Source: Candidatus Omnitrophota bacterium (GTDB lineage Bacteria > Omnitrophota > Gorgyraeia > Gygaellales > Profunditerraquicolaceae). Taken from it: a DNA stretch of 64,000 nt. Positions 12,001-42,000 of the stretch are shown here, one piece after another. The DNA is taken from positions 10,228 through 74,227 of the forward strand of contig JAUYBI010000041.1 in assembly GCA_030693145.1 (NCBI GenBank). The letters run 5' to 3'. Both the position numbers and the translations under genes were made by a program. Under the pieces are notes generated by a model. That model saw nothing but the letters and a program-made list of their open reading frames with translations, was not told the DNA's origin and made no database searches. Each line of letters opens with the position of its first letter. The first letter of the stretch is position 1.

Positions 12001-15000
12001 GTTATGATTGGTATGTGAACAACGTAGTAGATAATCCATCCTTAATTGAAAAGTTAGGCTTAGGGTATTTCAAGCTTCTGATTAACAAATATAAGGAACA
12101 GGCTGAGAAAGATAACCTTCTCCTTAACAGCGAGGAAAGGTTCCCTGTCAGAGACGATGACGGCTCCAAACTTAAAGTCAATGGACAAGAAAAAGATAAT
12201 CTCATGATAAGAGAATATCTGTCTGCTAAGACTGAACAGCTTCTTGAAGCGCTCTACCAAAAACCTAAGCCTGAAATTAGGACTGACCACGGAGCATCCT
12301 CCAATGAAGCCAAGAAGTCCCGCGGGCCATTAATATACACAGAAGAAGAGGTAATCACCTTAAGAAATAAAGCCCGGAACCTTAAGATTCATAAAGATTT
12401 ATTCTTGGCAGGCATAGAATTCTCACCGCCCAGAGAAGCAGGTAAATCCGCCGAACCCAAGATAGGCTTCCTTAAAGAGAATACCGAGGGGGTATTTGAG
12501 GAGATATTTGAAGAGAGCTTGAGGGATGGAGGCGTAAACGTTGAGCAGGAAATTGGCGAGAAGTTCTATAAAGACGATAAGATAATTATTCAGACAGCTA
12601 ATGGCAGGGTAATAAAGGATGGAGGAGTTCTGGATGAGATCAAATTCAAGCTTTTTCTCTTAAGTTTAATGCGGTCTACAGAGAAAGATATGCTGGAAAG
12701 AAATTCGCGGCCGGAATCCCTGAGTAATAAAGAAAATGAGCTTTTTTTGAGAATTCATAAAGAAATCAGGAAATATTCTTTGGGTAGCATTAAGAGAGTT
12801 TCTGTTTCGTATAAGGAAAATAAGGACACGTATGGGTATACCATGGCATTGGTTCTTCCTTTCGAGAATGATGAGGCTGGTAAATATATTGCGCGTCCTG
12901 AATCGTTAGATGAAGCGGGGCAGATTCTTGTCTTTAAAAGGTTTCTGGAGAACATAGTTTATATTGAGTCGGTTGATCCGCTTTTCGCCAAACGTATCAT
13001 TGACGCAGTTATGATTCATGAAGAAGGCCATTTTAAGGCGTTTATGGAAAGTAATACCGGAAATGATCCCCAAGATAAGGTTGAGCAGGAACAGATTGCA
13101 ACGCGATATGTCTTGAGACAAAGGGATGGACTGGCCCTTTTGGCTTATTTTGTCTGGTATCAGATATTCATGATGCCGTTATATAAAAATGGGGATACTG
13201 ATTTTATAATCAGGGATGCCAGCTTGAGCATTAATTATGGATTTTATACCACCGGGAATGAATATAAAAACCGAATATTGGTGACTCTTGTGCTTGAATT
13301 GGATAAGAAATTCGGAAAAATTCTGAGAGAAATTCGGAGAGATGGAGGGGAGTTGTGTAATAAAGAATCTGTAATTTTTCCCCAAAAGCATATTCTTGAA
13401 GTTACTCGTGAAGAATTTCTAAAAGAGATGGTAAATTCCGGTTTCTACCGCCCGGGTTATTTTGGTAGTAAACGTTCAGAAATTACAAAAATATTAAATG
13501 AATGGCTAGGAGAAGGGATGTGGGAAGAGCGGCACATAATAGAAGGTAAATTAGTCTATATAGGGGAGGCTTTAATTTATTATTATGAAGAAGCTTATTA
13601 TAATTTCTTCTTAAATAATCCGGAACAACTTGAATGGCTTTTAAGCATGGCTGGTGATGTTTATGATACCGCTCCCAGTAATGTTATGAGCGGATTAGAT
13701 TATGGTATTCAGGAAACCCCTAACACACATTATCAGGATATAGCTATAAGAAGAGTAATAAAAAGTTTAGGAAAAGAGTTTAAAGGTGACCATTTAGTTC
13801 AAGTTAGAGGTAGAGGAACAGAGGGTGAATTATTAAGCCCCGGCGTAATCGCGTTTCATCTGCCGGGATTAATTTCACAGCCTGCGATAAAGGGATGGTG
13901 GATGGAAGGCAGTATTGAAGATTTTTGGCAAAGCAGCAAGGTGATTGTAATCAAAGAAAGAGATGTTACTTTTAAAATAATAAGCAAAGATTTTTCTGTA
14001 AGGGGCATACTTGAACAGGGCTGTATAGCTTTTGATTTCAATGGCACAATCTACGATAAAAATAACAAAAAATTAGGGGAAGGAATCGCTCAAGGGTTAA
14101 TTAATCTGCTAAACTCAGGATTTAGAGTGATTATCATTACGAATAACAAAATAGATGATCTATTAGGCAATAAGGGTAGGTTAATAACTAATGACGGTAG
14201 GTTTATTCTTGATTTAGTGCAAGAAAGTAATCTTAGTAATTTTATTATATATGCGGACAATAGAACCAAAAAATATATTTATGAACAAAATAAAAAAGAG
14301 ATGCAGGAGGTTAAAGATTACCGCAAAGGATTTACTTCAGAAGAGAAAAAGCAGGAAATTTGGAAAAAACTTCAAGGAGCAATGGTGCGCCTTTCTCAAG
14401 ATAATAATATTCTGCTGCCCGTTTTTGAGCTAAAAGACAAAGATACTCAGATTCGGATAGATATAGTTTTAGATGAAAAAGATAGCAATTATGTTAAGGG
14501 GAAATTAGAAGAAGAAATAAATGATGAGAGTTTTGAGGTTCATCCGGCGAATACGGGCATTTATATTTTACGAAACGGCTTAGATAAATCTATTTGCGTA
14601 GAGGATGCTATTGCAACCTTAGGTTTAAATCCAAAATATTTTATTTACCTTGCAGACAGATTTATTAAAGGCACGAAAGAAGATAATGTTGTAGTTGAGA
14701 AGAACGGCGTAATAGGCATAAATATAGGAGAAAAAGATAGAGATAAGTTAGCCGATAGCGTTATAGATTATGGAAAAAAGATCGAAGGAACAAGAGAGAT
14801 CATTGAATTAATAAAGAAAAATTTTGATTTATTTAAGAAGCAACGCGATAGCGGCAAAAAAATAACATCCAAAGCCATTAGCCAACAGTCAAACGAAGTT
14901 TCTTTTGACGCAATGCGAGCAGCCGACGGCGGAAGTATTTTTGATTTGTTCCGAAAGAAAAATACCATCATTGATTATGTTAAGAACGGGGATAGCTATC

Positions 15001-39000: not shown

Positions 39001-42000
39001 AAAGCTTAGAGATTGTCGATTTCGCTGTATGGGATAGGGGGCTTAAGAAGTTATCGTTGATTTATCTGGTTAACCCGGAATTAGCTGATGAGATACTTGA
39101 TTTGTCTTTACTGCATGAAGATGGTCACCTTCAGTTTATCAAGGATGTAAAGCAGGGTAAGTTTCCACCTTCTGCTGTAAATACAGAACTCGATGAGCAA
39201 TACGCGGATACAAACGTTTTAATAAAAGCGGGGTTGCGCGGCCTAGGTGTAAGCATGTGGTTTTATGCTGCTTTTTTAAACTCTGTTTATGAAACCGAAT
39301 TTAAGGATGATAATTGGATAGAGGCAAGGGTAAAGTTTCTATTAAAGTACCGGATTCTCGATTCGCCTATAGATCTACCCAAGTTTTTGCGTATCATGTT
39401 GCCATCATCTCTTTCAGGTTTACCCATTCATGAGAACCTGGGGGCAACAATTGAAGAAAAAGCTAGGGAATATTGTATAGAGTCTGTTGTAAAATCAGCT
39501 CTGGAAACCGAACAGAGATTCCAGCGGGCCAGATATAATAGACGTCTGGATAATATTGGTTCTTTCGATACTGCCTTTGGAAAAAAAGACGGCGGCAAAG
39601 CTAATTTAGCTTTCTCCCGTCTCGGTGCTTCCCTTAATCCTGAGGACTACAAGTATCTACCCATTCCCACTGAAAGAATTACTCCTGATTTATTTAAAGG
39701 CGCTTTGGAAAGATTAGAAAAAGACTATCCTCACTTAGCAGTTGCCTTTAAGGACGCAAATTTTGCCGGCTTCTTCTGGGCAAAGTATATGCCTTCAGCC
39801 GCGGCAATTATAAGATCAGGAGAGGAATATGGCTTCTTATTGGATGATAGACTAAGAGAGAGACTCACTCAACTTACACCAGATTCAGTTACTCTATTCC
39901 TGTATCTCTTAGTAGTGCATGAGGCAACTGAATTAACTCTGCAACTACAAGGAGCTACTCCCGATATAAATACTGAAATTGTTTCAGAATTAAATACCAT
40001 AGATGCCTATAAAAAACTCACCCAAGAAGAGAAAGCTAAGTTAAGCGTTCTCTGTCAAGACTTAGATAACCTATTTAGCAATAATAGATTTACTTACGTT
40101 ATAGATTTTTATGACGGGATTATAGAAAATAGATTCGCTCGAATGGAGACCATAAATAGATTAAGTAGATTTTTTAATCAATACCCCGGGATTAGTAATG
40201 ATCAATTTAATTATAAAAAGTTAAATAAATTTTTCGGGTTATTTGAAAAGATAAAAGAAGAGTTACTGGAAAAGATATCTGATATTCAAACAGAAATTCA
40301 AATAATCTCAAAAGTTCAAGATCCTGAATTTTTTGAAGATGATACCAATACTATTGAATTGATGGTTAGTTATAAAGCCCACGAAGTTTTTAGCCCACGC
40401 CAATTAATGCAAATTGCCTCTCTGATTAAGCCATGCGATAAGGCTAGTGGAATTAAGATAATTGATATAGTTACCCAACACTGGAATGGGCCGGTCTCTC
40501 AGCATTTAAGCATTAGTTTAATTTGCGTTGGAGAGAGGGAAAGTTGGATAATTTATTCTAAAGGTTTAGAAAGTCCCGTACACATCATTGTTGATCCTCA
40601 CAATGATGTGCGAAAAATAGACTTTAAAGTATTCAAACGCGCCTCTAAACAAACTGATGGCGGTTACCTTGATAACGGCGGGGCGTTTGACATATCTCAG
40701 GGGAAAGAGGGGAATAGGGTTGTGGAAACAACAAGCATTCTTACTAATAAAGGAGTAGATGATTTACTTATAAAAAATAGTAAGATTGTTCTTCCTTACG
40801 GAACTATCGATGGATCAATCCTAATCAAGGAAGGGAGAATCGCGCAGATTGATCGCAATATAGATGTTGATAAAGGAGTCAAAATCATAGATGCCAAAGA
40901 TAACATTGTCGGCCCCGGCTTTATAGATTTGCAAATACGCGGCGCAGGTGACGTAAGGCCCATAAGCGGGAAAGCAAGGGATATAAAAGCAATGGCTGAA
41001 TTTCTGCATCAATTCGGCGTAACTTTATTTCTCCCGACTGCTGAGGCAGCGCCTATATCAGAATTGAAGAAATTCTTAGAGGCAGTTCGTCAAGCCAGAG
41101 AAACAACTTTAGGTGTTGGGCCTGCGCATATTGAAGGGCCATGGCTCAACCCTGAAATGCGCGGAGCCTTACCAGCCGAGTATTTGCTTGCGCCTGAAGT
41201 AGCTCAGATACAAGAGTTTATTGATGAATCAGATATTTTACGGATTATAACGCTTGCACCTGAGGTATTCATGCGCCAAGGGCTCGAAGGATTAATTTTA
41301 AAGATATCTGAAGCCGGAATTATTCCTTCTATAGGGCATACTAAGCCGACACCAGATGAGACAGATAGGATAGATTTTAGTAAATTTGGCATTAAGATGG
41401 CCACCCATGTTTATAACGGCATGGACAAAAAAGACCAAAAGCTGATAGATAAATTATTTTCAGCCGACATTATATTTACGGTTATTCTCGATATAGCGCA
41501 TATGCCTGTTGTAGCAATACAGAATATTCTTGGAAGAAATAAAAAGGTCGCTTTTATAACAGATGCGCTTAATGCAGGAAGAAAGAGCGTAAGCGTAGAC
41601 GGTCTAAATTATAAAGCAATGGTTAATGATGAACGCGGCCCGGGGGAGGCTTTTTATGCCCAGAAGGAAGGAAAACTGGTATTGGGTGGCAGCTGCGTTA
41701 CGATGGATCGGATTTTTAGAAATGCAATTGAGCATCTAAAGATCTCTGTAGAAGATGCGTTCAAAACAACTAGCACGATCCCGGCAGAGGCAATAAACGA
41801 GAAGGATTTAGGGACAATTGAGATAGGTAAACAGGCAGATTTGGTTATCCTGGATAAAGATTATCATGTTATTTTCACGATTATAAAAGGGAAAATCGTT
41901 TATTCTAAAGATGAATTATCAGCATTAAGTATTCCTTTTGATAATGGTATCTCCTTAGGCAAAGATGCATCCCTCGACGGCGGCAATAACCAACACTCTC

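Follow-up and report, generated by a model that had tools for sequence, protein, structure and literature searches.

Predicted zincin-like HExGH modules and recurrent DGG junctions in a giant multi-enzyme protein of an Omnitrophota bacterium

Multi-effector toxins and viral polyproteins are made as one long chain that contains its own protease and is cut between its modules. For bacterial giant proteins of 10,000 to 147,000 residues, those of Omnitrophota included, it is an open question in two recent preprints whether they act as single chains or are cut (10.1101/2023.11.21.568195; 10.64898/2026.06.07.730766). The first of these describes the Archaeovorins and reports a C39 double-glycine peptidase near the N-terminus of Omnitrophota giants (West-Roberts et al., bioRxiv 10.1101/2023.11.21.568195), while the second describes a 'multi-enzyme metabolic cluster' and lists a 24-protein C39 architecture cluster (10.64898/2026.06.07.730766). 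A text search of both (DGG, double-glycine, HEXXH, zinc) found no mention of junction motifs or of HExxH modules. Here we analyse a stretch of 64,000 nucleotides from a Candidatus Omnitrophota bacterium (assembly GCA_030693145.1, contig JAUYBI010000041.1, positions 10,228 to 74,227 of the forward strand; hereafter the window), in which part of a giant gene encodes three related modules with the motif HExGH, set among many copies of the tripeptide DGG.

Frame +3 of the window is free of stop codons from nucleotide (nt) 3 to 63998, a run of 21,332 codons, while the remaining five frames contain 712 to 2,294 stops; the window thus covers an internal part of a giant gene. The Pfam domains found in this frame are B12-binding/radical SAM, DegT aminotransferase, APS kinase, PHP, CofD, phosphoglucomutase (PGM), three phosphoglucose isomerases (PGI), 6-phosphogluconate dehydrogenase, 6-phosphogluconolactonase-type, PRK, ARMT1, hexokinase, methyltransferases, histidine phosphatase, amidohydrolase, OMP-decarboxylase-like, SIS, PEMT and HEAT, which together cover 23% of the chain. 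This is the architecture of an Omnitrophota multi-enzyme giant, an open reading frame (ORF) of more than 10,000 amino acids (aa) tiled by many distinct enzyme families. Like the giants of the two preprints, the ORF of more than 21,000 codons combines PGM/phosphomannomutase, radical SAM, hexokinase, methyltransferase and HEAT domains, and the named relatives of its HExGH module all come from Omnitrophota. It differs from them in that the proteases proposed there are C39 or S8, neither of which is present within this window. The likeness to viral polyproteins and to toxins with a built-in cysteine protease domain (MARTX and large clostridial toxins) is by analogy, namely a long product with its own protease that is cut at short linkers, cleavage being a proposal in the present case. 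Those systems use cysteine or serine proteases, usually in a single copy, and carry effector or replication cargo, whereas the candidate here is an HExxH metalloenzyme in several diverged copies and the cargo is central sugar metabolism.

The protein is mostly non-repetitive, with 13 BLAST self-matches in total, and the HExGH modules are among its few recurring units. Their motifs are HEEGH in module A (nt 13017-13031, aa 4339), HEKGH in module B (nt 15459-15473, aa 5153) and HEDGH in module C (nt 39114-39128, aa 13038). Given the residue composition, chance would yield about 0.39 HExxH and about 0.03 HExGH, while four and three, respectively, were observed. An initial annotation of the window had taken the three modules for paralogues, and BLAST bears this out, the positions and flanks being as it had given them: B and C match with an E value of 1e-13 over about 200 aa, A and B with 3e-7, and A and C with 3e-6, at pairwise identities of 22-33% (about 25% for A versus B). 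The unit boundaries it had proposed (12627-13340, 14934-15758 and 38616-39587) coincide exactly with flanking DGG triplets, and every copy, at a length of 238-324 residues, has DGG at both edges.

3-63998, forward strand: internal part of a giant multi-enzyme ORF, open past both window ends, with Pfam domains tiling the frame
12618-12626, forward strand: DGG junction directly before module A, one of 53; the other module-flanking DGG lie at nt 13341, 14925, 15759, 38607 and 39588
12627-13340, forward strand: module A (aa 4209-4446), between DGG at nt 12618 and 13341; core about aa 4275-4446; family hidden Markov model (HMM) match at aa 4275-4448, E 1e-43
13017-13031, forward strand: HEEGH of module A by motif position, candidate zinc-binding His pair and catalytic Glu
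13089-13091, forward strand: E4363 in QEQIA, candidate third metal ligand of module A, in an invariant column of the three-copy alignment
14934-15758, forward strand: module B (aa 4978-5252), between DGG at nt 14925 and 15759; TPR-like part about aa 4978-5082; core aa 5083-5252; family HMM match, E 2e-48
15459-15473, forward strand: HEKGH of module B, by motif position
15498-15500, forward strand: E5166 in DEEVA, candidate third ligand of module B, in the aligned column; at 9 residues past the second His, atypically close
38616-39587, forward strand: module C (aa 12872-13195), between DGG at nt 38607 and 39588; N-terminal helical (TPR-like) part; core aa 12969-13184; family HMM match, E 3e-55
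39114-39128, forward strand: HEDGH of module C, residues 70-74 of the model described below, within helix 57-82
39195-39197, forward strand: E13065 in DEQYA, candidate third ligand of module C, model residue 97 at the start of helix 94-123
39288-39302, forward strand: YETEF of module C, found in relatives as Y(E/D)(T/S)(E/K)F

Only 16 columns are invariant in the alignment of the three copies, in which pairwise identities are 24-33%, and these include the H, E, G and H of the motif, the E and A of a downstream 'E(E/Q)xA', a Gly, a Trp and a Tyr. The acidic stretch that had been noticed downstream of each motif is real, and it holds, within 'E(E/Q)xA', the Glu that aligns in all three copies (E4363 in A, E5166 in B and E13065 in C), which lies 20, 9 and 23 residues past the second His, respectively. 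The string YETEF, likewise noticed earlier as common to B (nt 15588-15602) and C, recurs in relatives, while module A has YKNGDTDF (nt 13182-13205) at this place. The N-terminal part of module B gave a sub-threshold match to TPR_2 (fragment residues 46-71, E 1.5e-4, 22 bits). Immediately before A (nt ~12525-12620) and immediately after B (nt ~15759-15853) lie the copies of a direct repeat, about 95 nt long and about 93% identical, which flank a block made up of A, a 528-aa unit and B. The peptide encoded by the repeat ends in (G/N)(R/K)VI(K/R), and the 28-aa peptide of the first copy is bounded by DGG on both sides.

An exhaustive HMMER profile search of 1.84 billion representative proteins returned 12 relatives of the modules. 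Four are stand-alone proteins of 201-265 aa, and eight are large multi-domain proteins of 937-3,517 aa with radical SAM, SPASM, ROK, HAD, TPR and HEAT domains. Wherever the source is named, it is Candidatus Omnitrophica/Omnitrophota (P0002, P0003, P0006 and P0013, by NCBI name). A scan of species-representative genomes added two more copies, both with HEEGH, in frames open over 6,770 codons (L010) and 4,433 codons (L011); the former belongs to an Omnitrophota metagenome-assembled genome (MAG) and the latter to a MAG labelled Planctomycetales. A word-indexed homology search gave no match with the three-module alignment and one fragment with an alignment of 16 sequences, scans of genome and metagenome collections with the window's own modules gave no match, and a later metagenome scan gave the L010 contig again. 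HExxH is intact in 14 of the 18 copies (12 of the 16 aligned, plus those of L010 and L011), and the downstream Glu in 14 of the 16 aligned copies. The only fully invariant residues of the aligned family are Gly109 and Trp118, in the helix past the Glu, and in most relatives the module closes with a C-terminal helix that ends in ExEYQxRL. A, B and C are old and divergent copies of one domain family, not described before and, so far, essentially confined to Omnitrophota.

The 'about 50 GG-type junctions' of the initial annotation correspond to 53 in-frame DGG against 5.8 expected, a 9.2-fold enrichment that makes DGG the most enriched tripeptide of the protein. All 53 fall outside Pfam domains (P about 8e-7), and DGG occurs 5-18 aa from the ends of the PGM, hexokinase and OMP-decarboxylase-like domains, bracketing whole enzymes. 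The segments between junctions range from 5 to 1,838 aa and most are enzyme-sized, the shortest motif-bounded peptides being of 5-31 aa. In this the window looks like a self-processing polyprotein, with a recurrent short signal that lies between, and never within, functional domains. No leader-like consensus was found upstream of DGG in the window. At the DNA level, 53 of the 56 plus-strand matches to GAYGGNGG are in frame, and the DGG of the window are encoded by 18 different codon triplets (9-mers).

The same anatomy, with the module likewise set between junctions, is found in relatives with other motifs. KSFPAG occurs eight times in P0001 (a complete ORF of 3,005 aa), K[SKA][FY]PA[GA] four times in P0003, DNGG nine times over four consecutive ORFs of L009, and SSP(L/I/V) 18 times in L010, where it precedes phosphofructokinase by six residues and flanks the HEEGH module on either side. 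Unit C, bounded by DGG, can be aligned over its whole length with a unit of P0001 that is bounded by KSFPAG (aa 207-554, E 1e-27); the boundaries have thus been conserved while the junction motif changed. The SSP junctions of L010 use both TCN and AGY serine codons, and codon variation of this kind shows that selection acts on the junction motif as protein. In the neighbouring 5,483-aa protein of L008, neither the motif of P0003 nor HExxH was found in the 2,750 residues examined. A polyprotein anatomy, here and in relatives with other motifs, is strongly supported, and in our view the junction motifs are the stronger finding and the more surprising one.

Several further observations concern the junctions themselves. 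Of the 53 DGG sites, which include nt 12525, 24108, 34449 and 38607, 30 carry the 8-mer GACGGCGG, which occurs in frame only and is the second commonest 8-mer of the window. Codon usage at the junctions is skewed, GAC making up 68% of Asp codons versus 23% overall, and GGC 70% versus 31% overall; this bias could reflect decoding speed or accuracy, or concerted evolution. DGG as a scar or recombination site at the DNA level was rejected as the main explanation on the grounds of the near-exclusive in-frame location, the 18 codon triplets and the mixture of TCN and AGY at the SSP sites of L010. Spontaneous cleavage at Asp/Asn-Gly was also considered, and has no power to explain the KSFPAG or SSP junctions. 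Four junctions at aa 16773-18201 (nt ~50319-54605), a region mostly without Pfam matches, share the longer consensus (D/G)R(S)(A/T)R(L/F)DGG. In L009, a 1,025-aa ORF (nt 3-3080) ends in NTILVSLDGG followed by the stop codon, a natural C-terminus that resembles a junction; this single case would fit cutting after Gly-Gly.

To assess the fold, a construct of module C (aa 12969-13198) was modelled with AlphaFold2 from the 16-sequence alignment; the three-sequence alignment alone gave an unusable model, with a predicted local distance difference test (pLDDT) of 50.6. The model reached a pLDDT of 81.3 and a predicted template modelling score of 0.80, with core blocks at pLDDT 85-97. It comprises strands at residues 11-14, 25-30 and 35-42, which are its least reliable part, and helices at 43-55, 57-82 (with HEDGH at 70-74) and 94-123 (which opens with E97). 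HEDGH is predicted to be embedded in its helix, at a pLDDT of about 90-95. This order of elements, with strands, a helix, the HExxH helix and the Glu helix, is the one expected of a minimal gluzincin. The initial annotation had read HExxH with a downstream Glu as the gluzincin signature, to be checked by profile searches and structure prediction. Conservation of these residues and the layout of the model, with HExxH in a helix and the Glu on the next, speak for this reading, while the profile searches yielded no peptidase match above threshold in Pfam and no named peptidase family was recovered. We consider it rather likely, from the alignment and the model, that A, B and C are metallohydrolases of the gluzincin/zincin type.

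The closest described folds are those of the minigluzincins (proabylysin, projannalysin and selecase) and of the M48 (Ste24/ZMPSTE24, HtpX and BepA) and M56 (BlaR1) families, which have, as is predicted for the modules, a small alpha/beta core in which one helix bears HExxH and the next, the 'glutamate helix', a Glu ligand. M48 peptidases have an ExxAD motif, which the 'ExxA' context of the Glu in the modules resembles, and BepA combines its M48 domain with TPR repeats. However, the modules have no detectable sequence-profile similarity to any of these, their backing helix comes after the sheet, and they have an extra hydrophobic helical pair (with the invariant Gly and Trp and YETEF) followed by the C-terminal ExEYQxRL helix. 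They are also soluble and sit inside a giant chain of cytoplasmic type, and are thus neither membrane proteins nor stand-alone archaeal zymogens. All family members fell below the curated HMM thresholds of Pfam Peptidase_M48, M56, M78/ImmA-IrrE, Zincin_1, M54 and SprT-like. Based on the model, we read the architecture as probably zincin-like, without assigning it to M48 or another named family. A membrane-embedded, M48-like arrangement is unlikely, since a scan for transmembrane helices found none in the first 13,800 residues, which include all three modules. Hydrophobic segments strong enough for membrane helices occur only in the second half of the protein, around the PEMT-like region and near the end (aa 15258-15673, 17192-17358 and 21044-21092).

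We propose the following anatomy for the unit. A TPR-like helical part (in B and C) would be followed by a small three-stranded sheet and a 'backing' helix (RFLEKI...). Next would come the active-site helix, P-E-L-A-x-E-I-I-x-A-x-L-L-H-E-x-G-H, in which the two His would hold Zn and the Glu would act as general base. After a loop, a second helix opening with E-(E/Q)-x-A would supply the third ligand. The hydrophobic helical pair with the invariant Gly and Trp and YETEF would come next, and the last helix (ExEYQxRL in relatives) would end a few residues before the next junction. The most likely activity would be hydrolysis of a peptide bond in an extended peptide lying on the edge strand, and the most attractive substrates would be the DGG linkers within the same polyprotein, which the modules would cleave, in cis or in trans, while the chain is emerging, so that enzyme-sized products are released. 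The HExGH module is the recurrent non-metabolic part common to junction-bearing proteins with four different motifs, peptide-binding TPR/HEAT repeats lie within or next to the modules, and these chains contain additional small HExxH modules of two other subtypes, described below. Pfam revealed no further peptidase domain, whether in the window (21,332 aa), in the complete ORFs P0001 and P0005, in L010 or within residues 1-3,200 of L011. We infer metal binding, peptidase activity and, most of all, that the junctions are the substrate. That the modules process the DGG junctions is a suggestion we make tentatively; the favoured explanation as a whole, an Omnitrophota family of zincin-like, metal-binding domains with the junctions as substrate, seems to us about evenly balanced between being right and wrong. 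Still wider, and in our judgement somewhat unlikely, is the idea that Omnitrophota giants are true bacterial polyproteins, which would be cut at lineage-specific motifs (DGG, DNGG, KSFPAG(E) and SSP(L/I)) by embedded zincin-like modules of at least three subtypes (HExGH, HELSHD and EGHExFH) whose specificity co-evolves with the motif, the products being ordinary-sized enzymes and short spacer peptides.

A number of results weigh against junction processing by zincin-like modules. HExxH is lost in four copies (the second copy in P0001, P0003, P0004 and the P0001-type WHKMY), and P0003 retains four junctions though its module lacks HExxH. Stand-alone homologues exist, one of them among ordinary genes and with no giant gene in the vicinity, indicating that the family is not tied to polyproteins; the contigs of the others are mostly too short for informative gene context. 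Three module copies face 53 junctions, which would require action in trans. In module B, the 9 residues between the second His and the aligned Glu are short for a gluzincin, and the scores bearing on the gluzincin-type reading are weak (Z no higher than 5.5). A Pfam hmmscan of 16 family members, at E values up to 10, returned only stray single-member matches to Zincin_1 (0.017) and Peptidase_M54 (0.026), far below threshold; NCBIfam yielded no relevant match for the modules, a profile search of PDB sequences gave no match, and Foldseek with the module C model found nothing significant in PDB or BFVD. Moreover, the two preprints contain no experimental evidence for cleavage of Omnitrophota giants, and the gene extends past both ends of the window into parts that may encode a C39 peptidase.

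This last point leads to a possible, though on balance doubtful, alternative, in which the junctions are cut by another protease, chiefly a C39-type double-glycine cysteine peptidase encoded beyond the window or elsewhere in the genome. In the processing of bacteriocin leaders, the cut made by C39 peptidases comes after Gly-Gly; a DGG junction would need this same cut, and it would also fit DNGG and perhaps PAG. The N-terminal region in which such a peptidase is reported for Omnitrophota giants (10.1101/2023.11.21.568195) lies outside the window, and the 24-protein C39 cluster (10.64898/2026.06.07.730766) points the same way, as do the module homologues that stand alone outside any polyprotein and the junctions that P0003 keeps beside a module without HExxH. 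The HExGH modules would then be zincin-type hydrolases with another substrate, e.g., prey or cell-envelope peptides, or would serve quality control or the regulated degradation of partner modules, a role to which we likewise give limited credence. However, C39 peptidases have a cysteine protease fold without HExxH, and none was detected: Peptidase_C39 had no match in the window (an internal part of the gene), P0001, P0002, P0003, P0005, P0009, L010 or the first 3,200 residues of L011, and the absence of other peptidase domains described above tells against this alternative as well. Neither SSP(L/I) in L010 nor KSFPAGE in P0001 is a double-glycine site, and neither would be obviously explained, and the leader-like consensus sought upstream of DGG is missing.

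It is also conceivable, though improbable, that the giant protein stays uncut and that DGG and its counterparts are flexible hinges or docking signals in a mega-enzyme built like beads on a string. Multi-enzyme fusions without cleavage are common, and neither preprint offers experimental cleavage. The HExGH units would, with similarly low probability, be non-proteolytic, acting as a site for a structural metal, as a pseudo-protease adaptor or as a TPR-associated scaffold on which neighbouring enzymes are organised. Their association with TPR and HEAT repeats is compatible with such a role, as is the loss of HExxH in 4 of 18 copies, with Gly109 and Trp118 the sole fully invariant residues. Yet a hinge needs no exact, lineage-specific motif kept at the protein level with varied codons at dozens of sites, and the 5-31 aa motif-bounded peptides and the L009 ORF that ends in DGG and a stop fit processing sites more easily, while H, E, H and E are kept in all three window copies at 22-33% identity. 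Given how short HExxH is and how long the protein, chance matches in unrelated modules might be thought of too, a reading whose probability is negligible: three HExGH stand against about 0.03 expected, and it is refuted by the significant BLAST paralogy and by the profile of the three copies, which retrieves relatives with the same motif from 1.84e9 proteins.

The window contains a fourth HExxH, HELEH (aa 14668), which the initial annotation had missed and which may mark a module of another subfamily.

43911-44210, forward strand: candidate fourth zincin-like module, of another subfamily (aa 14637-14736), after the SIS domain and ending at DGG 14737; HELEH at nt 44004-44018

An HMM built from the 'EGHExFH...E.EAR' modules of L011 found its sole window match here (aa 14637-14755, nt 43911-44267); the match is weak (2.3 bits, E 0.005) and in register over the strand, HExxH and E.E. 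The EGHExFH subtype itself has four copies in the open frame of L011 (aa ~101, 1398, 2939 and 4024), with the consensus '...LYIHL..LD...FL..VLEGHExFH..G..E.EAR..T..YL'. A HELSHD subtype has three copies in locus L002 (P0001 aa ~600-790 and ~1890-2080, and aa 1-165 of the next ORF), with the consensus '...LLFDRxYIETLL...AERLxHExSHxD...EE'. HExxH is intact in several copies of each of these two families, neither of which is known to Pfam. A further family, (I/V)H(E/K)ATE(L/F), had been suggested earlier from strings at nt 39918 and 22164. Both strings are present, but the regions around them are not significantly similar to each other (BLAST E 0.43 over 23 aa) and both lack a second His, and we rejected this family.

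Other units of the giant frame show signs of duplication. Two PGI units (aa 7987-8622 and 9758-10435, nt ~23961-25868 and ~29274-31307) are 80-95% identical, indicating a recent duplication, and the second contains an internal tandem duplication of 39 aa around the PGI signature NMFEFWDWV(S/G)GRYSS. A PHP-containing unit of 520 aa is duplicated at 62% identity (aa 2823-3343 and 5675-6206). The top matches of the DGG-bounded hexokinase unit (nt 34350-35909, aa 11483-11934) in a collection of 5.8 billion proteins are vertebrate hexokinase-2, at 37-41% identity over about 82% of the query. Vertebrate hexokinases alone were returned by this search; their tandem domains inflate scores, and closer bacterial relatives are possibly hidden beneath them.

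With regard to the question of how bacterial giant proteins act, the window and its relatives supply candidate cut sites, in the form of protein-level motifs that bracket whole enzymes, and a family of candidate proteases that is built into these chains and rarely found outside them. Should processing be refuted, the modules would still be a new, taxonomically narrow family of HExxH domains, and the junction motifs would need another explanation. If processing is true, a free-living or predatory bacterium would use the polyprotein strategy of viruses for the stoichiometric expression of its central metabolism, run by a new zincin family. Based on our findings, we suggest that these modules and junctions offer a candidate mechanism, open to testing, by which giant proteins might be divided into working parts.

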